DNA of 64,000 nucleotides from the NCBI GenBank assembly GCA_965218425.1, contig OZ244621.1, forward strand, positions 2,048,001 to 2,112,000. The letters run 5' to 3'. Source of the DNA: an uncultured Candidatus Binatia bacterium (GTDB lineage: Bacteria; Desulfobacterota; Binatia; UBA9968; CAXXLF01). This document shows, piece after piece, positions 2,978-60,260 of the stretch (position 1 is the stretch's first letter; each line of letters begins with the position of its first letter). The notes beneath the pieces are model-generated. The model did not search any database. It was not told the origin of the DNA and worked only from the letters and a program-made list of their open reading frames with translations. A program made the position numbers and the translations under genes.

Positions 2978-3011
2978 GTCGCAGACCGTTCGGGTTATAG
3001 GGTCAAGCGCC

Positions 3012-6000: not shown

Positions 6001-6317
6001 AAATTCACGGGGCTTTTTATCTGATCGCACCGCGCTGGCTGAACGGGCCGCTGGCTATTGAAGAGTTCCCTGAAAAGGGCTGGGATGATCCGTACAAGGA
6101 AAGACTCCAGGAAACCCTGGGATTTCTCCTAAAGGGAATTCAGCAGGGTCGATTTTTTATTTCTCCCGGTGATCATTGCAGAAACTGTGACGTGAGAGCG
6201 GCCTGCCGTAGAAATCACCGACCTTCACTTTGGCGTGCCGAAAAAGACCCGGCGGTGAGGTCCCATGGTGAATTGAATGAACAGAAAGCGGCGCTCACGC
6301 AAGGGAGACGCGGGTGA
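3012..6317 (+). CDS. addB: AddB/RexB-like helicase-nuclease subunit
   Basis: Degenerate helicase N-terminus; C-terminal RecB-family nuclease (DRVD...IDYK...LQLPLY); Fe-S staple cysteines RCPYQY and CRNCDVRAAC; overlaps addA. ATG 3012 chosen as start. Confidence 0.85.
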   Translation: MRVVLGPFHPDLENALVDEVLGHRKKNLLSPLLILVPSDPLLHRLKILLARERQLNLLNVHILTFYQLSRRLLEENHQALALPLRDDAFAEEALRHMIQTDFQWESVFSGIEAREGGCGALWQTLRDLKDAKVDYQPTMDALAEGYLSSPGVTKLRDLFRLHGEYSSSARDWGIRDYTDLDALATEQVPSSEYLQQFSAIVYYGFYDLTQIQLDLFQTVARHYPTTLLFPLIPGHPAWAFAQRFYDRHVQTLVTGSPVVSTAGADSHNAFAAIHLRLFNEEAREAPEMGGSCTIVNCSGQRDEVLTTAKEILKLVTHKGLAFDEIGVVVRSLDSYLPWFKDIFTDHGIPMAGYAKGSVLPFPLVKAVVLLTGVLSKDYLRSHVMDLISSPYFDLRPYCGEKVTPRSDLWDPMTRRLGITKGFESWRRLERYVDRGIALPRQGDEDEEPSVRSVSPEQIKILLTIVTELHGDMAKLPGEASWSEYANRWKELLNKYLGLEKRETLSAPPSLEEQIVEVILDTLEDLVGLDGLAPHVGHLHFLRTFQRWLDRASVPVTEWNLPGVSVLDAMSARGLSFRALFILGLNEGIFPRTIREDAFLRDATRRSLETVLGYKISEKLAAYDEEKLILALLVGAARESLYCFYRRSEEGGRALTPSWYLGEIRRAVWGPETVTASVNEEECPVQERSIPRGILEREKVSPFDEAQWLTPNELAVCLALQGQDPVPVLKLAAQPLGIHSRGLRSMQLLEDPRRSLDQLDGMIGPVPDYWQRLLERGISPTALERYARCPYQYFAADILELHEMERPEEVSSLGPSVIGQLSHTILKSLYIQLMEEGYFTREPSKGEWSSRWDELTHKAFSDYAAENPVGYPVAWEVLGEELSRLLHQVVEQDLDELGVSGFRPMAFEPQWRGRLEDGWPDPLGRLPIVGSPDRVDYEPSKSRYRVIDYKLRMGKRESAEDHNLLQSALRGKRLQLPLYILLAAQHAQAGKRGKIPAKIHGAFYLIAPRWLNGPLAIEEFPEKGWDDPYKERLQETLGFLLKGIQQGRFFISPGDHCRNCDVRAACRRNHRPSLWRAEKDPAVRSHGELNEQKAALTQGRRG

Positions 6318-9300
6318 TGTCAAGCGGTTTAGCCGACGGATTGGAACGCCAACGGGCCGCCACCACTTTCGACCAGAATATTGTCGTTACGGCAGGTGCC
6401 GGTACAGGAAAGACAGCCTTGCTGGTGAATCGACTGGTTCATCTCTTGATGCGCTCGCCTGACCCTGTGAAAGTGGACGAGCTTGTGGCTTTGACGTTTA
6501 CCAATAAAGCCGCCGACGAGATGAAAATCCGCTTGCGCCGGCGTCTCCGAGCCTATGGTGCCGTCAGACTTGATCAGGAACCTCTAGATACAAACCAAGC
6601 GGAGGTACATCGAGAAGTCCAGGGTTTTATGGAACGCTACCACCTGGGAAAAAAGGAGATCGACGGTCGCGCCAAGGAAGCGCTTCGTCATCTAGAGCGG
6701 AGCGAAATCGGCACTATCCATAGTTTTGCGTCTAGCCTCCTTCGACTGTACCCCCTTGAGGCGGGACTGGACCCACAGTTCGGCGAGGATGACGGGGCTG
6801 GTTTTGAAAGGCATTTTGACGAAAGCTGGAATCTCTGGCTCGACCGTGAGCTTTCTTCCCGGGGACCCCATAGGGAATCCTGGAAGGAGTTGCTGCGGAA
6901 GCTCCCTCTTGAGCGTATCCGTGAGCTGGCCTATGGATTGAGTCCGGAGACTGTGGACCTCCCTCGACTGGTCCAGCTAGTGCAGGGTCAAAAAGAACTC
7001 CAGTTGCATAGAACCTGGTTAAAAGACCTGGAACAAAAGGCCTCACGCCTCATAGAACGACATCCTGGGAATCGATCCGTTGAACAACAGGTGCGGGCTT
7101 CCAGACAAATGATTCGTGAGTTTTGCGCGCGGGGATCCGTTGGCTCCGGCGTCCTAGAGGCGGAAAGGGAACTCCTTGCCTCCGGAAAACCCATTACAGG
7201 TACAGGTCCCAAGGGTTGGAGTGAAGAGGAGGTGGAAGAGGCCAGGGGGTTGATTCGAGTGGCGCGTTGCCTGATGGGCATCGATCGGCAACTCTTGGGG
7301 CTTCTTTGTGATCTTGTGATCCCCTTTGTGGGGAGTTGCCGTGAGACTTTTGTCAGGGCCGGATTTATTTCATTCGATGGTTTGCTGGTGCGGGCAAGGC
7401 AGCTGTTGCGGCAACACCCGGAGATCCGGGAAGAGCTCAAGGGGCGGTTCAAGGCGATCTTGGTGGACGAGTTTCAAGATACGGATCCGATCCAGTGCGA
7501 GGTCCTGCTCTACCTGGCTGAAAAGAAGGGACAACAGGCTCAAGACTGGCGCAAGATCAGGCTAGAGCCGGGAAAGCTTTTTGTAGTGGGTGACCCAAAG
7601 CAGTCCATCTATGCCTTTCGGCGTGCCGACATCGAGGCCCATCTGCGCGTTGTTCGTGATGTCATACAAAAACAGAACGGCATCGAGTGTACTCTAACGA
7701 CAAGTTTTAGAAGTCATGAAGGGATTCTGGACGTGGTGAACGGCGTCTTCGCTCGTCTCATTCAAGCGCGTGAGACACTTCAGCCCCCCTATGCGTCGAT
7801 TCATCCGTTGGAGGAACCCGTGAGGGAAACAGCGGACCATCCATCGACACAGCTTCGCCATGTGGAGATGCGCAGAGTTGAAAGTGATGAGAATCTAAAC
7901 GCCGCCGCCGCGCGCCGTCTGGAGGGGGAGTCCCTCGCCCGCTGGCTTGCCGAAGAGGTTCTGGATAAAGCCGTGATCGTCCATAAGAATCAGACCCCGG
8001 TGCCGGCCAAGGCGGGACACGTGGCTATATTGATGCGCTCGCTGGTTAACGTGGACCAGTATCTGGAACCGCTGCGCAGGCGGGGAATTCCCTTTGTGGT
8101 GGAGGGTGAAAAGCACTTTTACGCCACGCAGGAAGTGATCGACATGGTGAGCCTGCTCCGTGCCATCGAAAATCCCTACGACCGACTGGCATTGGCGGGG
8201 GTGCTTCGGTCTCCACTGGGGGGACTCAACGACCGAGAGCTCTATGAACTCCACCAGCAGGGGCTCTTGGATTATCGTGCGGTGGCCTGGCCCAAGGGGC
8301 TACCCAAAAAAGGCGTTGCCTTCCGAGTCCGGGGTCTCTATCCCGTTCTTCTTCGACTCCATCGTGAGACTCGCCTGCTTTCCGTGGGAGACGCGGTAGG
8401 TGAAATCTTTGGCTCGCTGCCTGTGATGGTATTGGCCGCCAGTTCCCACCATGGGGAGCAGCGAGTAGCCAACCTAGAAAAGGTTCGTCTTCTGGCGGAG
8501 GAAATGGGACGGGAGGGACCGGCGACGTTGAAGGCGGTTATTGCCGCCTTAGAAGAGCGGGTGTCTGAGATGCAAGAGGAAAGTGAAAGCAGTCTCGTCG
8601 AAGAAGGCGTGAATGCGGTGAAGATCCTGAGCGTCCATAAGGCCAAAGGACTGGAGTTCCCGCTGGTGATCCTGGCCGGTTGCCAGGCGGGGGTGAACCG
8701 CCTGGCAAGTGAGCCCGTGGAGGTTTACCATGACTGGTCCACTGACCTGGTGGGTCTCCATGTGGATGAACTGTGGAGTCTGTCGGGGATTTTCCTTGAT
8801 GGAAAGAAAAGGCTCCGTGAACAGGAAGAGCAAAAAAGGGTATTCTATGTGGCTGCAACCCGTGCCCGCGAGCACTTGACTCTTTCCTGTGCCGCGACGA
8901 AGAGAAGGACACCCGGGAGCTTTCTATCTCTGCTGGAGGAGGCCACAGGGGAGATCCAGTCAGCCGCCGGGTCGAGAACCTTGAGTGCTGGTGCTGGCAA
9001 GATCAAGTTGCAAAGCCCACGGGAATCGCTAGAGCCGCCGGGCTCCGTTGATAGCGGGTCCAAGAACAAAGCAATGGAGTTCGACAGCGGGAGCTACGAA
9101 AAGTCGGTTCAGCAACGGCAAAAACGGTACCAGGAAACCATGGAGACCCCCCTCATTGTCAATCCCACCTTGCTCAAGAGAATGGAGCAAGACATATGGG
9201 ATCAGGACCCTCATGGCCGCAATGATCGTGGACTGAACGAGGAGGCCCTCCTCATAGGTGAGTTGGCCCACGGATTTCTTCAATGTTGGGATTTCTCCCA

Positions 9301-9778
9301 GGACCATCCGTATTCTCGTGATCACCTCTTATCTTTCCTAGACCGAAGTCTCCTTCAGCGTGGTGACCATGATCACCTGTCCGTTCAGAGGGAGCTTGAA
9401 GAGATATTTCATGTGTTTTTCAATTCCTCCGCTTACCAGGAGCTTAAAAGCTCTCACATCCTTGGACGGGAGCTTCCCCTGTTGATTCCCTGGGGGAATC
9501 AGATCATGGAGGGGGTCATGGACGTGCTCTACGAAAGAGAAGGCGAGCTCTACGTTGCAGATTACAAGACCGATCGTGTCCAGGGTCGGGATCTCACCCA
9601 GGTAGTGCATTCCTATGGCCACCAGGCCCGCATTTACAGTGAAGCCGTTCACCGCTGTATGCAGAGGGATGTAGTCGAATTTAAAATCGTTTTATTGCGA
9701 TTGGGAAAGGCAATTCCGATAAAAATAGAAACAGGGTCCTCGGTCTACGCAACACAAGAAGACAAGGAGGGAGTATGA
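6314..9778 (+). CDS. addA: AddA/RexA UvrD-like helicase-nuclease subunit
   Basis: AGAGTGKT, TFTNKAA, VDEFQD, VGDPKQSIYAFRRAD, HKAKGLEF, YVAATRAR; C-terminal nuclease DVL...ADYKT. Confidence 0.92.
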   Translation: MMSSGLADGLERQRAATTFDQNIVVTAGAGTGKTALLVNRLVHLLMRSPDPVKVDELVALTFTNKAADEMKIRLRRRLRAYGAVRLDQEPLDTNQAEVHREVQGFMERYHLGKKEIDGRAKEALRHLERSEIGTIHSFASSLLRLYPLEAGLDPQFGEDDGAGFERHFDESWNLWLDRELSSRGPHRESWKELLRKLPLERIRELAYGLSPETVDLPRLVQLVQGQKELQLHRTWLKDLEQKASRLIERHPGNRSVEQQVRASRQMIREFCARGSVGSGVLEAERELLASGKPITGTGPKGWSEEEVEEARGLIRVARCLMGIDRQLLGLLCDLVIPFVGSCRETFVRAGFISFDGLLVRARQLLRQHPEIREELKGRFKAILVDEFQDTDPIQCEVLLYLAEKKGQQAQDWRKIRLEPGKLFVVGDPKQSIYAFRRADIEAHLRVVRDVIQKQNGIECTLTTSFRSHEGILDVVNGVFARLIQARETLQPPYASIHPLEEPVRETADHPSTQLRHVEMRRVESDENLNAAAARRLEGESLARWLAEEVLDKAVIVHKNQTPVPAKAGHVAILMRSLVNVDQYLEPLRRRGIPFVVEGEKHFYATQEVIDMVSLLRAIENPYDRLALAGVLRSPLGGLNDRELYELHQQGLLDYRAVAWPKGLPKKGVAFRVRGLYPVLLRLHRETRLLSVGDAVGEIFGSLPVMVLAASSHHGEQRVANLEKVRLLAEEMGREGPATLKAVIAALEERVSEMQEESESSLVEEGVNAVKILSVHKAKGLEFPLVILAGCQAGVNRLASEPVEVYHDWSTDLVGLHVDELWSLSGIFLDGKKRLREQEEQKRVFYVAATRAREHLTLSCAATKRRTPGSFLSLLEEATGEIQSAAGSRTLSAGAGKIKLQSPRESLEPPGSVDSGSKNKAMEFDSGSYEKSVQQRQKRYQETMETPLIVNPTLLKRMEQDIWDQDPHGRNDRGLNEEALLIGELAHGFLQCWDFSQDHPYSRDHLLSFLDRSLLQRGDHDHLSVQRELEEIFHVFFNSSAYQELKSSHILGRELPLLIPWGNQIMEGVMDVLYEREGELYVADYKTDRVQGRDLTQVVHSYGHQARIYSEAVHRCMQRDVVEFKIVLLRLGKAIPIKIETGSSVYATQEDKEGV

Positions 9779-17657: not shown

Positions 17658-18851
17658 TTACCTCGTGGCCCCCACTGCCCTTGCCTGATCACCCACCTTC
17701 CCCAACGTTGAAAGACCCTGTAACCTTTTGACGATTCCCGGCATCTTTTCGTTTACAAAATCCACTTCTTCCACTGTATTATAGCGGCTCAGACTGAATC
17801 GCACCGCTCCTTGAATCCATGTGGGTGGCACCCCCATGGCCCTCAAGACATGTGATGGCTCCACCGATCCGGCCGTGCAGGCAGAGCCGGTGGAAGCGCA
17901 AATCCCGAATTCATCAAGAAGAACCAAAATTGCTTCTCCTTCCAAGAATTCAAGGCTCACGTTGAGCGTATTGGGAAGCCGCTCCCCTCGATGACCGTTG
18001 ACCCGGCAACCCACACTCGACACCAAGGACTTTTCCAATCGATCACGCAGGGCCTGCACCTGTTTCGTTTCTTTTGCAAGATTCTTGCGAGCCAGTTCGG
18101 CTGCCTCCGCCATTCCTATGATGCTTGCCACGTTCTCAGTCCCGGCCCTACGGTCCCGTTCCTGATGCCCGCCCACAATAAACGGACGGAAGGTGATACC
18201 CCTTTTTACATAAATGGCGCCCACCCCTTTGGGGGCGTGAAATTTGTGACCCGATAGGGTGAGCAAATCCACCGGACTATTTTTCACATTCAAAGGGATT
18301 TTTCCCGCCGCCTGCACCGCATCCACATGAAAGGGTATCCCTTTGGCCTTGGCAATCTCGCCCACGGCTTCAAAGGGGAAAATGACTCCGGTCTCATTGT
18401 TGGCGGCCATGACGGAAACGAGTGCCGTGTCGTCGCTCAAGGAATCCTTGAGTTCGTCCAGATCCAACACCCCATCCCCATCCACGTGAAGCCAGGTCAC
18501 GCGATATCCCTTCTTTTCGAGCTGCTGACAAAGACCAAAGACAGCGGGATGCTCCACCTGGGTCGTGACGATGTGGCGTTTTTCCGGGCGTGATTCGAGA
18601 ATGCCTCGGATGGCGGCGTTGTCGCCTTCAGTGCCACAACTGGTGAAAACCACCTCGATGGGATCAGAGGCCCCCAATAAAGCCGCTATTTTTTCCCTTG
18701 CCGCTTGAATCCTTCGCCCCACCTCGCTACCAAAACTATGGATGCTGGACGGGTTACCGTAAAGTTCCGTTAGGTACGGCTTCATGGCCTCAAAGGCCTC
18801 AGGCGCCACCCGTGTGGTGGCGTTATTGTCGAAATAGATTTGAGATCCCAT
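17658..18851 (-). CDS. nifS: Cysteine desulfurase NifS
   Basis: YFDNNATT, FTSCGTE, SGHKFHAPKG, STGSAC. Confidence 0.92.
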   Translation of the reverse strand: MGSQIYFDNNATTRVAPEAFEAMKPYLTELYGNPSSIHSFGSEVGRRIQAAREKIAALLGASDPIEVVFTSCGTEGDNAAIRGILESRPEKRHIVTTQVEHPAVFGLCQQLEKKGYRVTWLHVDGDGVLDLDELKDSLSDDTALVSVMAANNETGVIFPFEAVGEIAKAKGIPFHVDAVQAAGKIPLNVKNSPVDLLTLSGHKFHAPKGVGAIYVKRGITFRPFIVGGHQERDRRAGTENVASIIGMAEAAELARKNLAKETKQVQALRDRLEKSLVSSVGCRVNGHRGERLPNTLNVSLEFLEGEAILVLLDEFGICASTGSACTAGSVEPSHVLRAMGVPPTWIQGAVRFSLSRYNTVEEVDFVNEKMPGIVKRLQGLSTLGKVGDQARAVGATR

Positions 18852-18871
18852 AGGACTCCGGTTGCCCTACT

Positions 18872-19201
18872 CTAAACGGCAAATGAAGACCCACAACCGC
18901 AGGTCCGCTTTACATTTGGATTTTGGAAGACAAATCCCGATTGCATCAGGGTTTCCTGATATTCCAGTTCCGTACCCGTTAAATAGAGGAGGCTCTTTGT
19001 ATCAACGATGACCTTGGCGCCGGCATTTTCGAAAACGCGATCACCGGGTTTTGGGTTGTCGAAATCCAGCTTATAGTGAAGACCCGAGCATCCCCCGCCC
19101 ACAACTTTGACGCGCAACCCCTGGTCTTCTTTATTTTCAGAGACCATCATTCGTTTTATTTTGTCGGCAGCTTTATCGCTGATGGTAACTGCGGCTGACA
19201 T
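18872..19201 (-). CDS. iscA: A-type Fe-S carrier (IscA/HesB)
   Basis: GGGCSG and CGCGSSF motifs. Confidence 0.92.
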   Translation of the reverse strand: MSAAVTISDKAADKIKRMMVSENKEDQGLRVKVVGGGCSGLHYKLDFDNPKPGDRVFENAGAKVIVDTKSLLYLTGTELEYQETLMQSGFVFQNPNVKRTCGCGSSFAV

Positions 19202-19228
19202 ACCTAGGGCCTCCTGTGGAACGAGAGT

Positions 19229-20461
19229 CTAAAGGGTCCCTTCCTGTAGTTTCGAATTAGCTGCCCGATGCTTCGAAACATCCGGCTTCGCCCCGCCAAA
19301 AGGCGAGGACAAATCACGCAAGCGCGAGACTTCTTGTGCTACCCGGTCAATGGTGTAATCCACTTCTTCTTCGGTATTAAATCGGCCAAGGCCAAAACGG
19401 ATGGAGGCGTTGGCCAGGTCTTCCTTGACCCCCAAGGCCCGAAGTACATGGGAAGGTTCAAACACCGCCGAGGTGCAGGTGGAACCCGAGGAGACTGCAA
19501 TCTCCTTTAAACCCATCAGTAAAGATTCTCCATCCACACCTGCAAAACTCATATTCAGGTTGCCGGGGAGACGGTGAGTGGTGTCCCCATTGAGAAACAC
19601 CCCGTCAAGCCGGCTAAATATCCCTTCCTTAAGCCTCTCCCTCAAACGGTTGAGGAGAGGTCCTTCGTCCGCCATTTGATCTTGGGCCAATTGGCAGGCC
19701 TTACCGAATCCGATGATGCCGGGGACATTCAGAGTTCCGGAACGCACCCCCTTTTCATGTCCGCCGCCATGGATGATCGGGGTGATACGGATCCTTGGTT
19801 GTTTTGCCCTTACATATAGAGCGCCAATTCCTTTCGGGCCATAGATCTTGTGTGCTGAGAAGGATAATAGATCGATTCCCATTTCGGTTACGTCCATGGG
19901 AATTTTTCCTACTCCCTGGGTTGCATCGCAATGGAAGATAACACCTCTTTCCTTAGCGATTCGTCCAATCTCTGCCAAGGGATGGATCGTTCCTATCTCG
20001 TTGTTTGCCGCCATGATAGAGATAAGAATGGTGTTTCCCTTGATTGCTTCACGTAACCTTTCCTTATCCACGAAACCAGAGGAATCCACAGGGAGATAGG
20101 TAACCTTATAACCCTGTCCCTCCAACGCCTTGCAACTGTCCAAAACCGCTTTGTGCTCCGTGGCACAGGTTACGATATGGTTTCCTTTCTCCTTGTATGA
20201 CTCTGCAATTCCAATGATGGCTAAGTTGTCCGACTCAGTAGCTCCACTGGTGAAAACGATTTCCTGGGGAGACGATGCGCCTATTAGCTGTGCAATTTGC
20301 TCTCTTGCCTCATCAACTCCGGCCTCAGCCTCCCAACCAAACTGATGGTTTCGACTTGCGGCATTGCCAAACCTATCACAAAAATAGGGCAGCATTTCAT
20401 CCAACACCCTAGAATCAACCGGGGTAGTTGCATGATTATCCATATATACAGGTATCTTCAC
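19229..20461 (-). CDS. iscS: Cysteine desulfurase IscS
   Basis: [40 protein letters not shown] start at 20461. Confidence 0.92.
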
Positions 20462-20479
20462 CGTATCTTCCCCCCTGCT

Positions 20480-20555
20480 GATCAAGTTTAGTCAACAGGA
20501 GATACAAATTCAGACTTATTGGGTCTTATATATACGATGCCGACTGTGATGTCAA
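20480..20555 (-). promoter_or_regulatory. isc promoter with IscR/Rrf2-type operator(s)
   Basis: Minus strand TTGACA(20555-50)-N17-TATATA(20532-27), then ATAAGAC-CCAATAA-GTCTGAAT (GAC-N7-GTC, the IscR type 1 spacing) and a weaker TTGACTAAACTTGATCA. Confidence 0.6.
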
Positions 20556-20592
20556 GGCCATTTCTCATAAATTGGGTATCAAATGGTACATT

Positions 20593-23142
20593 TTAAACTA
20601 TTGTTTTATTTTGCTTCTTGAGTATTTTGCTTAGAAATTTTCCAGTGTACGATTTTGCTGTAGACGATACTTCTTCAGGTGTTCCTTTCGCTATAATTTC
20701 GCCTCCAGATTCACCGCCAGCAGGTCCTAGGTCAATAATATAATCAGCCGACTTGGCTACGTCCAGGTTGTGCTCAATGGTGATTACCGTATTTCCCAAT
20801 TCGGTAAGCCGGGTGAGTACCTCCAGAAGCTTCTTAATGTCAGCAAAGTGGAGCCCGGTGGTGGGTTCGTCAAGGATGTATAACGTTTTTCCTGTGGATT
20901 TCTTGCTTAATTCTCGAGCTAACTTAATACGTTGCGCCTCTCCTCCGGATAGTGTCGTGGCAGATTGCCCGAGGTGAATATAGCCCAGGCCCACATCTCT
21001 CAACGTTTCTAGTTTAATCCTTATTATTGGAATATTTCCCAAAAATTCCAGGGCCTGATTCACCGTCAGGTCTAAAACCTCCGAGATGTTCATGCCCTTA
21101 TACAGCACATCCAATGTCTCCCGGTTGTATCGGCGCCCATTGCAAACTTCACAAGTCACAAAGACATCGGGCAGGAAGTGCATCTCAATTCTAATAATCC
21201 CGTCTCCAGCGCATGCCTCACATCGACCCCCCTTTACATTGAATGAGAACCTGCCGGGTTGATATCCCCTCATCCTTGCATCGGGCAGTTGGGCGAAGAG
21301 ATCACGTATATGACTGAAAAGACCTGTAAAGGTGGCGGGATTGGAACGTGGAGTCCGTCCAATGGGGCTTTGATTGATATTGATGACTCTATCGAAATGT
21401 TCCCATCCCCCGATATCGTCGAAGCTCAGCTCCTTTCTCTTGGAAGGGAGCATCCGGGGGGCCAATGCTTTGTACAATGTATCCACCACTAAACTGCTCT
21501 TTCCCGAACCGGACACTCCGGTAACACAGGTCATCGCGCCAACCGGGAATTCCACGGTAATCCCCTTAAGATTATTTTTTCTAGCCCCTTTGATGATCAG
21601 GGTCCTGCCATTGCCGCGACGACGATGGCCTGGGGTGGGGATCACCTTGCGGCCTGAAAGGTAATCACCCGTTAAGGATTGAGCGGATTCCATTATCTCA
21701 TGGGATGTCCCTTGCGCGACCACCTCCCCACCGTTCACACCAGCCCCCGGTCCCATGTCGATGACATGATCGGCCTGAAGTATCGTCTCCTCATCATGCT
21801 CCACCACCAACACTGTGTTGCCTAATTCTTTGAGATCTTTGAGGATGGCCAGCAGGCGGGTGTTGTCTCTAGGGTGAAGCCCGATGGTGGGCTCATCAAG
21901 GATATAGACCACACCAGCAAGTCCAGATCCGATTTGGGTAGCGAGTCGAATCCTCTGTGCCTCTCCTCCCGAGAGGGTGGAAGAGCCGCGATCGAGGCTT
22001 AAGTAATCCAAACCCACCTGGTCGATAAAGTGTAGTCGACTGCTTATCTCCTTCAATATCCTCTGGGCAATGGTCTCTTCCTGAGCGTTGAGTTTCAGAT
22101 CAGAAAAAAACTTGAGGGTCTCTTTGATGGGAAGAGAGCTCACCTCTGCAATGTTCCTATTGCTTATCTTTACATGGAGACTCTCCATTCTGAGCCGCGT
22201 CCCGTTGCACTTTTCACAGGGACTGGGATTCAACGGTAGCTGAGCCTCTTCGGCCAGGGTTTCAGGATTGATTTTGCTACCCAGCCCACCGCATGCCGGG
22301 CACGCGCCCTGAGGACTGTTGAACGAAAACATGCGCGGACTGATCTCCGGGTACGATACCCCGCACTGAACGCAGGCGAATTTCTGGCTGAAGAGCATGG
22401 TCCTTGCGCCGTCTTCCCTTGTGCCGGATTGGATCTCTATCTTGATCACTTCATTGCCGTGACGGGAGGCGACCTCGAGTGAATCCGCCAAACGCTTTTC
22501 CATACCAGACCGCAATACGAGACGGTCCACCATCAAATCGATACTGTGGGGGACTTCCTTTTTAAGCCTGATGTCCTGATCCAGTTCGTGAATTTTCCCG
22601 TCAACTTTGATACGCAGGAAGCCGGCTTTGGCCAGGTGCCTAATCTCTTGACGGTATTCGCCTTTTCGTTTCACGGCGATGGGCGCCAGGATATGAATGC
22701 GGGTTTGCGGCGCAAAGGAGAGAACGCGGTCCACTACCTGTTGAATGGTCTGGGCGGATATTTCGTTTCCGCAGGAATAGCAGATGGGTCTACCAATCCG
22801 AGCGAACAGGAGCCTCAAGTGATCGTAGATTTCCGTAACCGTGCCAACGGTTGAGCGTGGGTTACGGCTCGCGGTCTTTTGCTCAATGGAGATGGCGGGG
22901 GAGAGCCCCTCAATGGAGTCCACATCGGGTCTTCCCAGTTGCTCGAGGAATTGGCGAGCATAGGCCGACAGGGACTCCACATAACGTCTCTGTCCCTCTG
23001 CATATATCGTGTCAAAGGCGAGTGAAGACTTGCCGGATCCAGAAACGCCGGTGACGACTACGAGGCTGTCACGAGGGATCTCAAGGTCAATGTCCTTTAA
23101 GTTATGGACCCTTGCCCCCTTGATGACGATCTTACCTGGCAT
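20593..23142 (-). CDS. uvrA: Excinuclease ABC subunit A (short form, 849 aa)
   Basis: Two [11 protein letters not shown]alker A motifs, two [20 protein letters not shown], zinc-finger CxxC pairs. Confidence 0.96.
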
Positions 23143-52338: not shown

Positions 52339-53316
52339 CCGCGGTGGCTCGCCGGCGTGGCGGTTTCTCGCAACGTGGGCGACGGCTCGTACCGCATAGC
52401 CAAGGACATGTCGAGCAGGCTTGAGGGCTCGCTGACGAGCGTGCACCCTTATCTGCGCCTGTCGGCGAACGAACGTCTGTCGTTGTGGGGCCTGTTCGGC
52501 CATGGGCAGGGCGAGTTGACGCTGGCCGCGGACCGGACCGGGGACGATATAAAGACCGACATCAAGATGACCATGGGGGCCTTGGGAGCGCGTGGCGTAC
52601 TTGTGTCGGCGAAAGAGACGGGGGGCTTCAAGGTCGCGGTGCGTGCGGACGCGCTGTTGGTGCGGATGAAGTCGGGCGCGACGCGGGACATACTGGCGGC
52701 GGAGACGGAGACGAACCGGCTGCGGCTGGCGCTGGAGGGCTCACGGGCGTTCGAGCTGACCTCGGGCGGGGCGGTGCTGACGCCGTTGCTGGAGGTTGGC
52801 CTGCGCCATGACGGGGGCGACGCGGAGACGGGGACCGGTGTGGAGCTGGGCGGGCGTGTCCGCTATGCCGACCCGGCGTGGGGCCTGACGATGGAGGCGC
52901 AGGTCCCCGGTCTGATCGCCCATAAGGACAGCGGCTACGAGGAATGGCGCGCAGGCGGCTCGATCCGTCTCTCTCCGCGGTCCGACGGGCAAGGCCTGTC
53001 GTTCAGCCTGCTGCCTTCCTATGGCGCGGCCGGCAACGGCGCCGAGCGGCTGTGGGAGCAGGGCATAGCGGCGAACGACCATACGCCGTCGGCCCGCCTT
53101 GAGGCGGAACTCGGCTACGGCCTGCCGGCGCTCGACGGCCTGCTGACGCCCTATGGCGGGCTCGGGCTATCGGAGGGCGGCGACAAGAGCTACCGCGCAG
53201 GCGGTCGCTTCGTGCTCGGCCAGATGCTGGAACTCAGCCTCGAAGGCAACCGCCGCGAGGGCGCGGCTCGCGCTCCCGAGCACGGCCTCGCCCTGCGCGC
53301 GGGTGTGCGCTGGTAG
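52339..53316 (+). pseudogene. Autotransporter-type beta-barrel fragment, 5'-truncated
   Basis: Amphipathic beta-strand pattern ending LRAGVRW; GLRHDGGDAETGTGVELGG; in-frame TGA at 52336; no signal peptide or passenger; GC-rich. Confidence 0.75.
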
Positions 53317-53679: not shown

Positions 53680-53755
<76 letters not shown>

Positions 53756-53762
53756 AATTTCC

Positions 53763-53786
53763 AGCCGCCAGCTTTGGCGGTCTTTT
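53763..53786 (+). terminator. Intrinsic terminator after tRNA-Lys
   Basis: GCCGCCA-GCTT-TGGCGGT followed by CTTTT. Confidence 0.55.
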
Positions 53787-54658
53787 AGTTAACGCGAGCC
53801 CCCGTGGATTGCCTTTTCGGGGACTTGTCCTATCTGGCGCTTCTTCAAGCACTTGCGCCGCTCCACACATAATCCCCGATTCTCTGTCTCGAAAATAAGC
53901 TTCTGGAGTGCACTTGCAACCGGGGGGGTGCGCACTGATATCTAAAATATCATTTACTGATTCTCCTATCCTCCTTTTTTCGAGCCGCCTTGTTTAACAC
54001 CCCGGTTGCATACGGTCACCCGAAATCGCTATCCCCCAGTAAACAACGATGGTGACCGAAGTCTCGATACCAGAAGGCGGCCAGCTCCAGTGGGAGGGGC
54101 TTCGGTCCTTTATATCATCATGACCGTCCCCTCCTGGGGCGTCTGAGATGCAGGTTGGCCGGGGCGACTTAGGCGACTGCCTAACTAACCCCCAGGGAAG
54201 GATTGACGAACACAGGATCCAGCTTCAGATCCTCAGTTTTTCGTTCCCCAATCCCGGACAGGACGTCTTCATTAAATGTCTATTATTACCAAAATGGCTT
54301 GTGGTGCTCTCGTAGTGGGCTGTAGCGGCGTTTCTCCAGTAACAAGAGGAAGTCCGTCATAATCGCCCAATGCTCGTTGATGAGAGACTCAGGTTCGCGT
54401 ATGCTATCGTAGTTGAGAATCGTGCGGGCACCGACACAAGCGGAACGCTTCCCCGCATGCGGCGTACTGCTCAGGGTGTGCGAGACCCGGGGCTAACCAC
54501 ACGCTGCAGGACTCCTCCCCCGCGCTGGCACCTGGGCGGTCCGGAAATCACCGGGCTACCTTCCAGCAACAGAGACCGCATCGACCGGGGCCGCTGTGGC
54601 ACCACGGACGGAGCCGGACACGGTTAGTTAGTCGTTGGCGATGGAGGACGATGAGGCT

Positions 54659-56776
54659 ATGGCAATGAATACAGTCGATGAATCCGGCATTCTGGATCAT
54701 CTCGTAAAGGATGCGGGAAACTCCAAGGACATGAAAACGTCCTTTCGCGAGCGCTCGACAAGAGTCGGGGCGGTCTACACGATGACTTACAACCGAGCAA
54801 CGGTCGCCATCTACGACTTCGACCGCGAAAAGGCAGGCGGACTCCCCAAAGGCGGCTTTCTCATGGCTGCCAAACAGAGAGGGGATGAGAGCTTCATCTT
54901 GCTTCGGATTCTGAAGGAGGCTAGGCTCCCGAACACGACGGCCAACGATCAGACCCGCCAGCAAAGCGTTGAAAGCACCGCGAACGAGAGGCCGTGGCCA
55001 GAGGCATTGGACCCTTGGATGAAAGATCGGATGTCCATTCATGGAATCGAATGCCGCCTGCTCGGTACTTTCACTGCGGCGGAGGGCAGAGGGTACCAGT
55101 ATGCAGAAGACACTGACAACTACTTTGCTGTGAACGACTTGATGGTGTGGAAACCAGACCAGAAAACCCTTGACACGATCGTCAATTACCGGCATCGGCG
55201 AAATCCAATTTCAATGGGTGACAATCGCAGAAAGATCGGTCAAACCCGATTCGCGGCTGCCGAGAAGGACACTGCAACCAAGGCAGAGATGTGCCTGGAT
55301 CCGACAGACCTGCTCCAACGCCGGACCGTCTATCTGGGCATGTCGCGATCCGGGAAGTCGAACGCCATGAAGGTAACCGCGGAAGCGATCTATCAGCTCC
55401 GCGAGGCAAATCCGGAGAACAAAATTGGACAGTTGATCTTCGACCCCAACGGGGAGTATGCGCAGGACAATCTGCAAGACGGTCCAGGACTCCACAATAT
55501 CCACAAAGCCATCAACCGGCAAAGGAAAACCGAAGTTGAGACGTATGGACTTTTCCAGACGCCTTCGGATCCGGATCGGAAGATCATGAAGATCAACTTC
55601 TTCGGTGATCCTATTCCTCAGCAGTGGACGACTGCAGGGGTAAAAGCCGCACTCGATCAGATGCTCGCAGGCCGCGAGATCATCCAGGAGATAATGGCAG
55701 ACGAGAGCGCCCGGTACACGACCGCGTTCCGCGAAGTGGATCTCTCCGTCCCACCAACAGCTGACGCGGATCTGGGCGCCCAAATCCGGTACCGGAGGGC
55801 CGTGCTCGTGCATCAGACGGCGCTGGCCGCTGCGGGACTGGATCCACCACAATGGTTTCCGTCCATCAGCGGGCTCTTCAACAAGGATTTAATCTCAGCC
55901 ATGAAGGGAGCTCAGAACCAAGATAGCGATCACAGCGTCAAATACGACCAAGCTTCAACGATCTTGGAGTCGGCAGGAAAGAAAAATGGCCAAGTATCTT
56001 GGAATCAGTTGGAGACAATTTTCAGTGCGCTCAACCAGTTCATCAGTGACAAGCAGAGCTACTACGTGCGCTTTGAGACCGATTACATTCACAAATCGAA
56101 GAGCGGGGATAATTGGGCCGATCCGAAATTCAAGAATCTCCTTCGCATTTTCGAGACTCAGAATGGTCCTCGTTCCTTTCAGCGGGCTTATGAGCAACAT
56201 GACCCAAACGCTGCCAGAGATTTCGCGAATGATGTAGTCGAAGACCTACAGCACGGGAAGCTCGTAATCGTCGACCAGTCCACCGGGGACCCGGAGCAAA
56301 ACCGAAAGGCGGCAGAACGCATTATGTGGAGAGTGTTCCGCGCGCAACAGGAAGCCTTCAGAAATGCCGCGGGCACTGGGGACCTGAACGCAAACAAAGG
56401 CCACATCCTGGTCTATGTCGAAGAAGCGCACAACCTGCTTCCCCGGGCAAACGCCGCCGACAACCTGCGAACGGTGTGGGCGCGTTCGGCCAAGGAGGGT
56501 AGCAAGATGAACATCGGAATGGTGCTTGCTACACAGGCGCCAAGCTCAATCATGCCCGAGATTCTCAGCGAAACGGACAACTGGATTCTCGCTTACCTGA
56601 ACTCGGAGAACGAGCGCAGAGTGATTTCTGGATACATGGATTTTGAAGATTTTCTGGAACAAATCGGACAAGTTAGTGAGCCCGGTTTCGTGCGAATGCG
56701 CACGTTATCCCTCGCATATACCGTGCCTGTTCAATTTGACCGGTTTCGCCTGGACATTCCGGGTGTACAGGACTGA
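54659..56776 (+). CDS. HerA/DUF87-family ATPase with N-terminal HAS-barrel-like domain
   Basis: Walker A GMSRSGKS, IFDPNGEY, Walker B YVEEAHNL, AKEG, LATQAPS; start uncertain (54635-54665). Confidence 0.85.
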   Translation: MAMNTVDESGILDHLVKDAGNSKDMKTSFRERSTRVGAVYTMTYNRATVAIYDFDREKAGGLPKGGFLMAAKQRGDESFILLRILKEARLPNTTANDQTRQQSVESTANERPWPEALDPWMKDRMSIHGIECRLLGTFTAAEGRGYQYAEDTDNYFAVNDLMVWKPDQKTLDTIVNYRHRRNPISMGDNRRKIGQTRFAAAEKDTATKAEMCLDPTDLLQRRTVYLGMSRSGKSNAMKVTAEAIYQLREANPENKIGQLIFDPNGEYAQDNLQDGPGLHNIHKAINRQRKTEVETYGLFQTPSDPDRKIMKINFFGDPIPQQWTTAGVKAALDQMLAGREIIQEIMADESARYTTAFREVDLSVPPTADADLGAQIRYRRAVLVHQTALAAAGLDPPQWFPSISGLFNKDLISAMKGAQNQDSDHSVKYDQASTILESAGKKNGQVSWNQLETIFSALNQFISDKQSYYVRFETDYIHKSKSGDNWADPKFKNLLRIFETQNGPRSFQRAYEQHDPNAARDFANDVVEDLQHGKLVIVDQSTGDPEQNRKAAERIMWRVFRAQQEAFRNAAGTGDLNANKGHILVYVEEAHNLLPRANAADNLRTVWARSAKEGSKMNIGMVLATQAPSSIMPEILSETDNWILAYLNSENERRVISGYMDFEDFLEQIGQVSEPGFVRMRTLSLAYTVPVQFDRFRLDIPGVQD

Positions 56777-56781
56777 ACGCG

Positions 56782-58089
56782 ATGCCGTACGAGGATGAGC
56801 GGGCGGGTCTAGCGGCAATTCGGGCCATCGCCCAAAGTGGGGTAGTCGACGAGTTTCGTACCCGGATGGCTGAGCGCCATGACGGTACTTTGCCCGAGTC
56901 TCCGCCATTCCAACTCTGTTCTAGTAGAAGAGCGAGGACGCATGTTCTGGCTATTGATGGTTCGAATCTCTATGAGCCAATCCCCGGCGCCTTGCCGTGC
57001 ACCGAAGCCGGGCTGGTTTCCTTGGGCGTTGTGATCATCGATACACAAAAGCTTAGGACTTTGGAACGACTTCCGAACAGCGGGGCCGCGGATCCGAGGG
57101 AGCTGCAGAGCACGGAGAAAGGGGAGACCTGGGGAACGATGCTGCCTGGGCAGAATGCCGCGAGACAAGACGGAACCGGTCCGAGAATGTGGTTCAGGGA
57201 GATCATCAATCACGAACTTGAAAGTGCCAATCTTGGCGGTGAGAGCTTCGCCGAGACGCTGCACGCGCTTCTCCGCAATAGCAGAGAGGTCACATGTCCA
57301 GACCCGGACTGCGGGTCCCGAGTTCGCCTCCCCGAACCGGAACAGTCGGGCTCCTGCCCGAAGTGCAAAGGTCCCGTGTGGCTCGCAGACGGGCTGCGAA
57401 TTCACGAGCAGTTCGTTGAGAATCATCCGGTGGGCGAATGCCATGCGCGCTTCCGGGACACCCTGGAACTCCTCGCTCTTGTAAACTCACTCCGCCATCT
57501 TGTTAAGACCGAGCAGGGGCGTCGCGCCATTGCCAATACGGCATTCGTTATGGATGGTCCGCTTGCCGCCTTTGGGACCATTGCAGTTCTTTCCAAGGCC
57601 GTCAGGGGAGAACTGCGGCGTGTTCAGGAGGCGCTGGATGTCCACTCGTGTAGATCGGACTTGCTGGTAATGTCCGGTATCAAGAGCGGGCCGTTTGTGG
57701 AGCATGCTGCAGAACTCGACCGGGCACCTGAGCCTGGCCGGAGAATCCCACCGAACCACGTGTGGCTTCCAGACAATGGCTACATCCGGTCCCACATCAT
57801 TGCTGGAGCTTCGGAACAGTCGAAGCCGTGGGGCGAGCTGACGTATTTTGGGCGTCCTGTCGTCTTCAAGACTGTCAACGGCCAGCGACTCGTTCTCAAT
57901 CTTGCGCAGCCTGAAGCCGAACCACCACTCACTGAGGCCTCGCGCCCCCGCGTACTGGACGATGCCATTGCGACGGCGGGATCACTTGGTGTCGGCGCGC
58001 ACCAATTCCTTCCGCTTCGTCGCGTTCACGCCCAGGCCGCCATTCCGTTACGAAGCGGTACCGACCTCATCAAGAGTCTCGCACCTTGA
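56782..58089 (+). CDS. NurA-like nuclease with zinc-ribbon insert
   Basis: VLAIDGS, FVMDGPL, GIKSG, C-terminal His (RRVHAQAAI); CPDPDC...CPKC; begins 5 nt after the ATPase stop. Confidence 0.75.
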   Translation: MPYEDERAGLAAIRAIAQSGVVDEFRTRMAERHDGTLPESPPFQLCSSRRARTHVLAIDGSNLYEPIPGALPCTEAGLVSLGVVIIDTQKLRTLERLPNSGAADPRELQSTEKGETWGTMLPGQNAARQDGTGPRMWFREIINHELESANLGGESFAETLHALLRNSREVTCPDPDCGSRVRLPEPEQSGSCPKCKGPVWLADGLRIHEQFVENHPVGECHARFRDTLELLALVNSLRHLVKTEQGRRAIANTAFVMDGPLAAFGTIAVLSKAVRGELRRVQEALDVHSCRSDLLVMSGIKSGPFVEHAAELDRAPEPGRRIPPNHVWLPDNGYIRSHIIAGASEQSKPWGELTYFGRPVVFKTVNGQRLVLNLAQPEAEPPLTEASRPRVLDDAIATAGSLGVGAHQFLPLRRVHAQAAIPLRSGTDLIKSLAP

Positions 58090-59285
58090 CCCAGTCTCAG
58101 CGCATCGCAGAGTCGCGGGCCTCACCTTGGCCACGCGACACGGCAGCTCACCGATGGTATGGGTTCGGTCGCTACTACGCGATGTTTCCTCCCACATTCG
58201 CCTACGACGCGATCAGTGGTCTGACCCGATCCGGAGAGCCTGTTCTGGATCCATTCTGCGGGCGCGGGAACGGCCCTTTCACCGCAACCGTTTTGGAACG
58301 TCCCGCCCTGGGCATCGACGTCAATCCCGTGGCATGGCTCTTTACAGCCGTGAAGCTCGAGCCCGAAGCGAATCGAGACCGACTCCTGCGCCGCTTAAAA
58401 GAGGTCGCCCGCGCAACCCGGGCCCAGGACCGGCGCGGGCGGAGTCGTTTCGAAAGGATGGCATGGGCCCCTGATGTGCGGGCCTTCCTCAAGGCCGCCC
58501 GCCGTGAACTCGATTGGAGGCATTCAGTCACCGACCGCACGCTGATGGCCTTCATCGCGCTCCATATGCAGGACAAGCTTGGGGCCGGACTCTCAAATGG
58601 CCTCTGGCCAACTATCGCGTGCTCGCCCCGATATGCGGTTACCTGGTGGACCGAAAACGGTTTCCAGCGGCCTCCCAAAGTCGAGCCCGTGACTTTACTC
58701 GCGGACAAAATCATTCGTCGATACTGGTACGGGATACCGAAGCAAGCACCCGGATCGGTGGTGCTCTCCGACGCGCGCGACGCCCTACGGAGGAAATCTG
58801 CAATAAACGCAGGGCTTCTGATTACATCACCGCCTTACAATGGCGTTACTGACTACTGGAACGATCATTGGATTCGGCTATGGATCCTCGGGCACGACAT
58901 GCGAAAGGATTGGAAGCGTTCGTCGAGGCACGAGAACAAGGGGGACTACCAAAAGCTCATTCACAACGTTTTTCGGCAGGCGCTGCGACACCTCGCGAAC
59001 GACGCCGCTATTCTCGTACGAAGTGACCTGCGTCGGCAAACGGCACGGACTTGCCTAGAGGCCCTGCGGAAGACCTGGCCGCGCCGAAGACTGCTTTATC
59101 GGACCAGTGCGGCGCCTCATAAGGGGATCTCCATTTACCATGGGCGAGGAGGAAGCAGGGCGAGGGAATTCGATCTTCTGATTCCGGGCAAGCGGGGCGA
59201 AGCGTGGGGGGCAACCCACGGTTTCCAGCCATTCGAAGAGGAAGATCGTCAGGCCATGGATCTTGGTTACCCTTTACCGCCCTGA
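58086..59285 (+). CDS. Amino-DNA methyltransferase (SPPY, probably N4-cytosine; motif I before motif IV)
   Basis: YYAMFP, LDPFCGRG (motif I), GIDVNP, ITSPPY (motif IV); TTG start overlaps the nuclease stop. Confidence 0.85.
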   Translation: MTQSQRIAESRASPWPRDTAAHRWYGFGRYYAMFPPTFAYDAISGLTRSGEPVLDPFCGRGNGPFTATVLERPALGIDVNPVAWLFTAVKLEPEANRDRLLRRLKEVARATRAQDRRGRSRFERMAWAPDVRAFLKAARRELDWRHSVTDRTLMAFIALHMQDKLGAGLSNGLWPTIACSPRYAVTWWTENGFQRPPKVEPVTLLADKIIRRYWYGIPKQAPGSVVLSDARDALRRKSAINAGLLITSPPYNGVTDYWNDHWIRLWILGHDMRKDWKRSSRHENKGDYQKLIHNVFRQALRHLANDAAILVRSDLRRQTARTCLEALRKTWPRRRLLYRTSAAPHKGISIYHGRGGSRAREFDLLIPGKRGEAWGATHGFQPFEEEDRQAMDLGYPLPP

Positions 59286-59318
59286 TCCGGAGCATTGAAT
59301 CGACTGGCGCACTAAGGA

Positions 59319-59580
59319 GGTCAAGTCCCAGTTTCAGTTGAAACAGAGCACAGGCGGTTGAATGTGTCAGCTCGTCATGACGAGCTGTTTGATACTGGGC
59401 TTGGCTTGTATGGCTTGCCGGAGGGTCGGTTAGGTGGTGGTAGCCTTTGACCTGGCGCAGACGCGGTTCGATGTTGAGCAACGTCGTGGCTACCCCGGTG
59501 ACGCTGGGATGAGTTGGTCTAGCGCCGCACGTTATGCGTCAACTGCTGCAGGAGACTATTGATGTTCTCAGTTGGTACTG
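59319..59580 (-). mobile_element. IS256-family transposase 3' remnant with terminal repeat
   Basis: Frameshifted reading ENINSLLQQLTHNVRR*TNSSQRHR/VATTLLNIEPRLRQVKGYHHL/LRQAIQ, followed by TTTCAACTGAAACTGGGACTTGACC. Confidence 0.7.
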
Positions 59581-59631
59581 CGATAGGAATCTTCAGCATG
59601 GGCAGCGCGAGCCTTCATCGCTGGTGCCGCA

Positions 59632-59730
59632 GCTCCTCGACTTTGTGCGTGAACCCCTGCCGGCGCCATACGAGCGACGTCCCATCAGCAACGGGGTGAA
59701 CAGGTCGTTAACGACGACCCGGACATCCCA
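59632..59730 (+). pseudogene. Possible SRAP (SOS response-associated peptidase) C-terminal remnant
   Basis: LLDFVREPLPAPYERRPISNGVNR/VNDDPDI resembles the SRAP C-terminal PVS..VN...NDDP pattern. Confidence 0.35.
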
Positions 59731-60064
59731 GTCCCCATGTCTCAGCAGCGGCTGATTTGACCCTGAAAGGCGGAAGTCGTCTTGACGCCGCGTCTGCTTT
59801 TGCTGACATAAGTCAGAATAGGGGGAATTGGCCTCAGCTTTGCTTCCGTCGCGGCGGACCTGCCCGACTTTCCATAAGCCTTTCAAATACAAGACGTTAT
59901 TCTCTCGGGCATGACGGTGAGTGGTTATGAAGAGAGGTGCACATGGCCCACCAAACACCAGCCTGATGATTCCCGCACCCATTGCCTCTTCCCTGAAGGA
60001 ATCTTAAGTGTTCATAAGAGGATTATTGTAAGTCGGAAAGGAGCTCTCAAAAAACAGGCGGTTC

Positions 60065-60177: not shown

Positions 60178-60260
60178 GCGAGAGTGGCGGAATTGGCAGA
60201 CGCACTAGACTTAGGATCTAGCGGGTAACCGTGGGGGTTCGAATCCCCCCTCTCGCACCA
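60178..60260 (+). tRNA. tRNA-Leu(TAG)
   Basis: Anticodon arm CTAGA-CTTAGGA-TCTAG; variable arm; GTTCGAAT; CCA end. Confidence 0.97.

Follow-up and report, generated by a model that had tools for sequence, protein, structure and literature searches.

The stretch analysed here (the window) is 64,000 nucleotides of contig OZ244621.1 from an uncultured Candidatus Binatia bacterium, and the coordinates of the cassette are numbered within it. On its plus strand, a scan for open reading frames (ORFs) finds three co-directional genes with intact frames: a HerA-family ATPase (54659-56776), a NurA-fold nuclease (56782-58089, 435 amino acids), and a DNA methyltransferase with an SPPY motif (58086-59285, 399 amino acids). 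A 5-nt spacer separates the ATPase gene from the nuclease gene, and the TTG start of the methylase gene overlaps the TGA stop of the nuclease gene by 4 nt (TTGA). The ATPase frame also has an in-frame TTG at 54635, but a GGAGGA box lies 10 nt 5' of the ATG at 54659, so that ATG is the likely start and gives a protein of 705 amino acids. A preliminary description of this DNA had reported the same tightly linked layout and the same three families, and our coordinates and domain searches agree with it.

We propose that these genes form a horizontally acquired, self-contained cassette that resembles a restriction-modification (R-M) system, and that it is probably a methylation-linked counterpart of TdpABC. 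TdpABC is a system of thermophiles; An et al. reportedly described in 2025 that TdpA is a hexameric DNA translocase that carries a dimer of the NurA-fold nuclease TdpB, and the phosphorothioate mark is said to stop TdpAB on self DNA. The accessible text of PMC12914056 presents TdpABC as a phosphorothioate-based R-M system in which a single gene, tdpC, makes the mark, and the accessible text of PMC13223576 counts it among the R-M systems of this kind.

The ATPase matches DUF87/HerA in Pfam (E = 5.3e-9, above the cut-off), the HerA models of PADLOC (down to 2.5e-16), and PADLOC's mad8 (3.9e-12). Among PDB sequences, its top match is TdpA (8wet, 8wfd, and 8y1k; 3.3e-16), in two stretches that contain Walker A and the Walker B/sensor region, and the next match is the ATPase of SIR2-HerA (2.8e-8). 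In the AlphaFold2 (AF2) model of the ATPase (pLDDT 82.3), a RecA-like core is accompanied by an N-terminal beta-barrel and by a long helical insert. In structural comparisons (VIA), this model aligns to TdpA with Z = 30.8 over 519 of 560 residues at 22% identity; other defence and archaeal HerAs score Z = 21-29, with the nearest within about 2 Z units of TdpA, and the C-terminal domain of DndH (7es4) scores 23.2. Both ATPase motifs are conserved in the family: Walker A is G227-x-x-R230-x-G232-K233-S234 (55337-55360, plus strand) and Walker B is Y586-x-E588-E589-A590-H591-N592 (56414-56434, plus strand), and G227, R230, G232, K233, S234, Y586, E588-N592, and Q626 are each kept in at least 97% of 72 ATPase sequences.

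The nuclease scores 18.1 bits (E = 0.002) against the NurA family of Pfam, which is under the 21-bit cut-off. A profile of 66 diverse relatives of the nuclease has TdpB as its top match in the PDB (2e-4, in three colinear stretches), and nothing else falls below E = 0.23. The profile and TdpB share an N-terminal MPYxxE, a DGxLA motif, and an AHxxA motif. With the AF2 model of the nuclease (pLDDT 93.1, pTM 0.92), Foldseek ranks TdpB first (9e-8), followed by the NurA proteins of Thermococcus, Deinococcus, Sulfolobus, Thermotoga (TM1739), and Pyrococcus. In the VIA comparisons, the model aligns to TdpB with Z = 20.4 (306 of 358 residues, root-mean-square deviation 3.6), versus 14.1, 13.2, 12.3, and 10.9 for the canonical NurA of Sulfolobus, Thermococcus, Pyrococcus, and Deinococcus; Argonaute PIWI and endonuclease V score about 8. 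By sequence profile and predicted structure, then, the ATPase and the nuclease are homologues of TdpA and TdpB and are more distant from the HerA-NurA of canonical repair. The HerA and NurA labels of the preliminary description hold at the level of shared families, but among solved structures the pair is closest to TdpA and TdpB.

The motifs that had been noted in the nuclease (DGS, DGPL, and a terminal histidine) are present and conserved. D59-G60-S61, D203, E229, D258-G259, K301, and H308 are retained by 97% or more of 91 nuclease sequences, as is the extended motif D258-G259-x-L261, while H416 shows no variation among 28 close relatives and is conserved in at least 90% of the 66 diverse ones. 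D59, D203, D258, and H416 would map onto the active site of NurA. The nuclease also has a zinc-ribbon-like insert with four cysteines (C172, C177, C192, and C195; 57295-57366, plus strand). The preliminary description had called it a Zn-ribbon. None of the four cysteines varies among the 28 close relatives, and three of them (C172, C177, and C192) are conserved in at least 90% of the 66 diverse relatives. This region spans about 135 profile positions (91-226) versus about 65 residues of TdpB (88-153), so with its conserved cysteines it appears to be an insert that TdpB does not have. It gives weak matches to IBR/parkin zinc fingers, and we infer that it binds zinc.

The third protein matches N6_N4_Mtase of Pfam in two stretches (2.6e-9) and MTase_II of PADLOC (8.1e-18). 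Motif I is D55-P56-F57-x-G59-R60 (DPFxGRG; 58248-58265, plus strand) and comes before motif IV, which is T247-S248-P249-P250-Y251 (TSPPY; 58824-58838, plus strand), about 190 residues away. Both motifs are family-conserved: D55, P56, F57, G59, and R60, together with the SPPY that was recognized earlier (S248-P249-P250-Y251), are retained by 97% or more of 80 sequences. The methylase profile matches the beta-class Thermus enzyme 2zie (1.7e-9) in a circularly permuted arrangement, with profile positions 220-258 on residues 24-56 of the chain and positions 26-75 on residues 218-267. Among amino-methyltransferases, the serine of SPPY is commoner in N4-cytosine enzymes than in N6-adenine ones. The product is probably N4-methylcytosine, and possibly N6-methyladenine.

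The three genes are inherited together. In each of 16 genome loci at 55-67% identity, whose nucleases are 56-67% identical to the window's, the ATPase, nuclease, and methylase occur in the same order and on the same strand (16/16). Thirteen of these loci are from metagenome-assembled genomes of Dehalococcoidia or SAR202; the others are from Pseudomonadales, Longimicrobiales, and an unclassified source, one each. We found no fourth conserved gene, as no other cluster is common to more than two of the 16 loci, and the loci that share extra genes include two near-identical contexts (L017 and L018). A genome from the same class as the source (G150) has the trio at 37%, 32%, and 39% identity. We also scanned metagenomes with 20 representatives of a sister clade, which are ~30% identical to the window nuclease, and confirmed 392 relatives among 596 matching stretches; the 80 loci that we kept represent this one sister clade and not the whole family. 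In these loci (28-41% identity), the ATPase is present in 68/68 with at least 600 bp upstream and the methylase is present in 72/72 with at least 400 bp downstream, and every case where either is missing is at a contig end. The methylase linkage from which the preliminary description argued is found in every locus of these two clades with room for it. Furthermore, the 4-nt overlap between nuclease and methylase genes recurs in 54 of the 93 junctions measured. The pairwise identities of the three proteins are correlated (Mantel r of 0.93-0.97 across 61 loci and 0.79-0.94 within clades; for methylase and nuclease, r is 0.91-0.97). On these alignments, the co-divergence shows that the trio is inherited as one block, and by itself it does not imply that the proteins interact physically. 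When we looked for longer forms, we found a single fusion of nuclease and methylase (823 amino acids, in one contig), which may be real.

Some copies look decayed. In the locus from G150 (L022), the ATPase has an in-frame TGA (7727-7729) at the site of the family-invariant W486, whereas its neighbours, the nuclease and methylase genes, have intact frames. In classical R-M systems, the restriction half can decay while the methylase stays. This locus looks like a similar case, with a decayed restriction half and a methylase that was kept, or it could be an assembly error. Among 8 distinct genomes scored, the nuclease match has an in-frame TGA in 2: G442 (C1:515287-516606) and G630 (C1:3239491-3240834). 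These may be pseudogenes or long-read assembly errors. G442 is the genome of locus L009, where the nuclease gene was missed by ORF calling, in line with the in-frame TGA.

The family extends beyond these two clades, with partners that vary. A search of representative sequences with the nuclease family found 420 clusters (at 50% identity) with E <= 0.001, of which 223 had E <= 1e-10. A plasmid of the archaeon Halorarius halobius has the same gene order, annotated as a DUF87 protein, a hypothetical protein, and a DNA methyltransferase; this methyltransferase retains SPPY and shares 22% identity with the one in the window (2e-15). In two prophages of Vibrio cyclitrophicus, the ATPase-nuclease pair lies directly between the integrase and the excisionase. 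In the one inspected, the temperate Vibrio phage PQ189353.1 (L109, 1-6053), where the ATPase is annotated as two coding sequences, a Dam-class (D12) methylase that is not homologous to the window's is adjacent on the opposite strand, which suggests that the modification partner can be swapped. Cyanobacterial plasmids have an ATPase-nuclease pair that is 26% identical. On the Tolypothrix plasmid NZ_CP050441.1 (L110, 3467-10378), a helix-turn-helix regulator is followed by the pair, an ORF of 114 amino acids, and an 816-amino-acid fusion of an RNase_T exonuclease and a STAND NTPase; such pairs may belong to a separate branch of the family that is coupled to a sensor. For a 25%-identical nuclease at a contig end (L023 in G347), IS66 is next and the rest of the context is lost. 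Judged from these homologues, the motor and nuclease form a deep family with different partners; in both of the clades that we examined, this partner is the SPPY methylase.

The cassette lies on an island that was inserted directly behind a tRNA gene. The left border is the 3' end of tRNA-Lys(CTT) (53680-53755, plus strand), the island itself spans 6.29 kb (53757-60043), and conserved host DNA resumes at about 60044, with tRNA-Leu(TAG) (60178-60260, plus strand) followed by tig-clpP-clpX; both tRNAs were identified with ARAGORN. Two related genomes, G001 from the same genus and G002 from the same family, retain the tRNA order Pro, Arg, His, Lys, Leu and then tig, but have only about 195-210 bp between tRNA-Lys and tRNA-Leu. 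Homology to these genomes breaks at 53756/53757 and restarts at about 60044-60059, so we interpret 53757-60043 as an insertion with an empty site in G001 and G002. The preliminary description had placed the genes in a tRNA-Lys island next to debris of insertion sequences. The tRNA-Lys island is supported by the tRNAs and the empty site, but the debris is not. The island contains the three genes and non-coding-looking flanks of 0.88 kb and 0.76 kb. We found no integrase or transposase remnant in these flanks and no direct repeat of the end of tRNA-Lys at the island. The flanks' 13 stop-to-stop frames had no Pfam match at E <= 1 beyond the chance level, and the flanks have no copies elsewhere in the genome, other than two stretches of ~80-100 bp (73-76% identity) that match the tRNA-proximal end of the left flank. 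Nor did we find another domain-bearing ORF in the island, although no TdpC sequence was used as a query.

In a search of 40 relatives of the source, the nuclease had one match besides the source genome, and it was weak (E = 4.9e-4, residues 170-274). The nuclease profile matches 4 of 401 genomes sampled in the source's phylum, and in the phylum to which locus L010 belongs it matches 6 of 301 (the seed genome is counted in both), so the prevalence of the cassette family is about 1-2% of sampled genomes in two phyla. As an insertion that G001 and G002 lack and that few of the sampled genomes have, the cassette is mobile.

These results bear on whether the pair could be a canonical HerA-NurA machine for repair or end resection that is linked to a methylase by chance. 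The HerA and NurA folds are common to both, and in the accessible text of PMC12977600, HerA-NurA from Deinococcus acts in recombination. However, the island codes for the three cassette genes only, with no mre11 or rad50; the host's AddAB is intact within the window (AddB 2919-6317; AddA 6314-9778); the cassette is on an insertion that is missing from a same-genus genome, with a prevalence of 1-2%; and the nuclease is clearly closer in structure to TdpB than to canonical NurA. A repair role is highly improbable, as was already suspected in the preliminary description, which had pointed to AddAB and to the absence of mre11 and rad50.

Around the insertion, we made several other observations about the tRNA cluster. 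The ~80-100 bp right after tRNA-Lys (within 53765-53884) resemble two other sites in the genome at 73-76% identity and include a terminator-like hairpin (53764-53781); this repeated stretch may be a common tRNA-trailing element. Between tRNA-His and tRNA-Lys lies an ORF of 319 amino acids (52357-53316, plus strand) with ~70% G+C, versus ~56% for the genome, and no Pfam match. G001 has an insert of ~11 kb at the place of this ORF instead. This ORF and the insert in G001 mark the tRNA cluster as a hotspot for integration to either side of tRNA-Lys.

We then considered the neighbours of the cassette in other genomes. Around the 16 genome loci, we scanned 115 flanking ORFs and found mobile or defence-type neighbours in 9 of the 16. 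These include AAA_21 with DUF4276 and Schlafen; a phage integrase; a D12 methylase; two transposases; a ResIII helicase; type I HsdM/HsdS with DUF4365; AIPR; an Eco57I-type enzyme with TIR-TPR; and MT-A70/Macro/Uma2. For the metagenome loci, we compared 124 of the 169 flanking ORFs (from 38 of the 49 loci with flanks) to PADLOC at E <= 1e-15, and 30 of these ORFs, in 22 loci, had matches. Eight of the 30 are to generic models (GajB/UvrD, mad3/ABC ATPase, and RtcR). Among the remaining 22 are Septu PtuAB, an AbiP2 reverse transcriptase, dGTPases, parts of type II, III, and IV R-M systems, and several PDC candidates. As a rough control from a single window, we used the 33 ORFs of our window that are outside the island: 4 of the 33 matched, all to generic models (AddA, a UvrA-like ABC ATPase, and two class-V aminotransferases), and none of the 33 had a non-generic match. 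We set aside the GajB, mad3, RtcR, and DndA-type models as generic because the window's AddA, UvrA-like ATPase, and class-V aminotransferases match these same models. The preliminary description had suggested a survey for enrichment in defence islands, and the result is mixed: the genome loci and the non-generic matches (22/124 vs 0/33; p = 0.005 by Fisher's test, after the post-hoc exclusion of generic models) favour it, but the test with all matches does not (30/124 vs 4/33, p = 0.16). The neighbourhoods are consistent with defence islands, short of proof.

Of the window's genes with generic matches, two adjacent class-V aminotransferase (cysteine desulfurase-like) genes and the UvrA-like ABC ATPase are at 17661-23142 on the minus strand. 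They match PADLOC's DndA/SspA and mad3 models down to 1e-172, and such models also catch housekeeping genes. In one metagenome locus (L033, 336-2393), a second HerA-type ATPase (PADLOC HerA, 1.8e-33) lies just upstream of the cassette's ATPase.

Mobile cassettes with a coupled methylase could also be selfish. The trio might be an addiction module that stabilises itself or its carrier by post-segregational killing, as with type II R-M systems, with a small anti-phage benefit. This would suit a compact unit that moves by itself into varied surroundings without encoding any mobility function, that is found on plasmids, and whose nuclease and methylase are tightly coupled. It would also suit the decayed copies, which have an in-frame TGA in the motor or nuclease and an intact methylase. 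However, the neighbours are often dedicated defence genes, and one copy occupies the accessory slot between int and xis in a prophage. Addiction is also compatible with defence, as classical R-M systems do both. We consider it unlikely that addiction is the main role.

We favour the R-M-like cassette, in which the methylase marks self and the HerA-type motor drives a NurA-type effector. The preliminary description had arrived at a similar idea, and the strict linkage of the three genes, the absence of the insertion from close kin, and the frequent defence or mobile neighbours support it. The function in defence is inferred. In this scheme, the methylase would take the place of TdpC and would methylate host DNA at a target motif. 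The ATPase-nuclease complex would load on DNA, translocate with ATP, and degrade unmarked phage or plasmid DNA, and on self DNA the methylation would block loading, translocation, or cutting. The four-cysteine insert, in a region about 70 residues longer than TdpB's, is a candidate for binding DNA or reading the mark, and the long helical insert of the ATPase is another candidate reader of the base methyl. Tight translational coupling would ensure that the methylase is made whenever the nuclease is made.

Several points weigh against this proposal. To our knowledge, there is no mechanism by which a ring ATPase could read base methylation; in TdpAB, the mark that is sensed lies on the backbone and touches the pore, and sensing of a base methyl by a ring translocase would be unexplained. 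In the searchable literature, there is no experimental evidence for the cassette family. NCBIfam names none of the three proteins: the best score for the ATPase is 54.7 bits against a cut-off of 800, and the nuclease matches no model there (version 20.0) or in PADLOC-DB 2.0.0. The pair on the Tolypothrix plasmid has no methylase, and in the Vibrio prophage the Dam-type methylase may be of some other use to the phage. The fusion protein may be an assembly indel. Seven of the 16 genome loci have only metabolic or transport neighbours, and the enrichment of PADLOC matches depends on the post-hoc exclusion and on a control from a single window. Finally, 9 sequencing runs in 3 studies contain the locus, and none of them is RNA, which is no evidence either way on expression.

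The last point also touches on whether the cassette is a silent, unexpressed passenger in the source genome. In a simple promoter and terminator scan of the island, we found no promoter-like site upstream of the ATPase gene, and the counts of sites were similar to those for shuffled sequence. On the other hand, the window's copy has three intact frames and keeps every motif that is invariant in the family, and it lacks the in-frame stops that the decayed copies elsewhere show. We think that a silent passenger is very unlikely.

Another explanation is that the ATPase-nuclease pair responds to some other trigger, such as phage DNA ends or a phage protein, as has been proposed for SIR2-HerA and DUF4297-HerA, and that the methylase has a role in regulation, in protection from host restriction during transfer, or as an orphan. 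The lack of a known way for a ring ATPase to read base methylation would fit with this, as would the 26%-identical pair without a methylase. Also, HerA-effector defence systems that lack a methylase are established, according to the accessible text of PMC11291478, PMC11472057, and PMC11514289. But the methylase is present in every locus with room for it, in two deep clades (16/16 and 72/72); it co-diverges with the nuclease; its start overlaps the nuclease's stop in most of the measured junctions (54/93); and the closest relatives of the pair, TdpAB, are gated by modification. Another trigger therefore seems quite unlikely to us, and we retain the R-M-like reading.

More tentatively, we suggest a broader idea, which we regard as somewhat doubtful. 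The TdpAB-type motor and nuclease might be a general modification-gated DNA shredder that has been coupled repeatedly to a modification enzyme: to the sulfur chemistry of TdpC, to the permuted SPPY methylase, and to the Dam-class methylase in Vibrio. If so, the methylase-linked form would be an unnamed major class of ATP-dependent R-M system, and the cysteine insert would be its methylation reader.

If the R-M-like reading is true, then there is a widespread class of R-M systems in which the motor is an FtsK/HerA ring translocase and the nuclease is RNase-H-like, in place of the helicase-type motors and PD-(D/E)XK nucleases of classical systems, and the Tdp machine would be one branch of a broad family instead of a phosphorothioate-bound oddity of thermophiles. 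It would raise the question of how a pore-type motor senses a base methyl group. On the practical side, such cassettes would be a barrier to transformation in environmental bacteria, and their methylases would be a source of new specificities. The cassette also bears on the debate over repair versus defence for archaeal HerA-NurA, as set out in the accessible text of PMC12977600.

Among known systems, TdpABC is the most similar. Both have three genes, which encode a HerA-family ATPase, a NurA-fold nuclease, and a single DNA-modification enzyme. But the third gene of TdpABC is the phosphorothioate synthase TdpC, while the cassette has an amino-methyltransferase of the S-adenosylmethionine (AdoMet) type in the window and in all of the loci above (16/16 and 72/72), so the mark is a backbone sulfur in one and would be a base methyl in the other. 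TdpB (375 amino acids) appears to lack the cysteine insert, whereas the cassette nuclease (435 amino acids) has it conserved; TdpA has 586 amino acids and the cassette ATPase has 705; and TdpA and TdpB are only 13-22% identical to the cassette's proteins. TdpABC is found in thermophiles, and we know of no indication that the source organism is one.

The canonical HerA-NurA of archaea and Deinococcus (2ygk, 3tal, 7f6d, and 9x1m) has both folds, and presumably the same architecture of a hexamer plus a dimer. The accessible text of PMC12977600 describes HerA-type hexamers that translocate double-stranded DNA into a NurA dimer for processive degradation. However, the cassette nuclease is farther from these proteins (Z = 10-14, versus 20.4 for TdpB) and is under the cut-off of Pfam's NurA, and canonical HerA-NurA is encoded with mre11-rad50 or in a core repair operon, without a methylase. 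In SIR2-HerA and DUF4297-HerA, a HerA-family hexamer likewise drives or activates a partner effector, with fold similarity to the cassette ATPase of Z = 22-29 and matches to PADLOC's HerA models. In contrast, their effector is SIR2 or DUF4297, with no modification gene or self-marking, and the cassette's neighbours have no Pfam or PADLOC match to SIR2 or DUF4297.

Type I and type III R-M systems and Dnd/Ssp also combine a modification enzyme with an ATP-driven, translocating restriction part, and the C-terminal domain of DndH is related to the cassette ATPase. But types I and III use helicase-type motors of superfamily 2 and PD-(D/E)XK nucleases, instead of an FtsK/HerA ring and an RNase-H-like NurA fold. 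Classical type II R-M systems share the methyltransferase with its AdoMet-binding motif I and catalytic motif IV, but their endonuclease stands alone, without a motor, while the cassette has a ring ATPase with Walker A and B and a NurA-fold nuclease. MADS (mad1-mad8), in the accessible text of PMC13662399, is likewise methylation-based with ATPase-nuclease modules, and the cassette ATPase matches mad8. We rejected membership in MADS, as MADS is an operon of eight genes, while the cassette has three genes in all loci, matches only mad8, and has a nuclease that matches nothing.

We found no methylase-linked HerA-NurA or Tdp-like system that is named in the searchable literature, which does not include subscription journals or bioRxiv supplements, so a prior mention is possible. 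A HerA-endonuclease I hotspot is mentioned in PMC7251087. The preliminary description had proposed the trio as an undescribed system. The trio is indeed unnamed in the searchable literature, PADLOC-DB, and NCBIfam, but modification-gated restriction by HerA- and NurA-type proteins has already been described as TdpABC. The cassette is best filed as a widespread candidate for a methylation-linked variant of TdpAB-type, modification-gated restriction, rather than as a categorically new principle.

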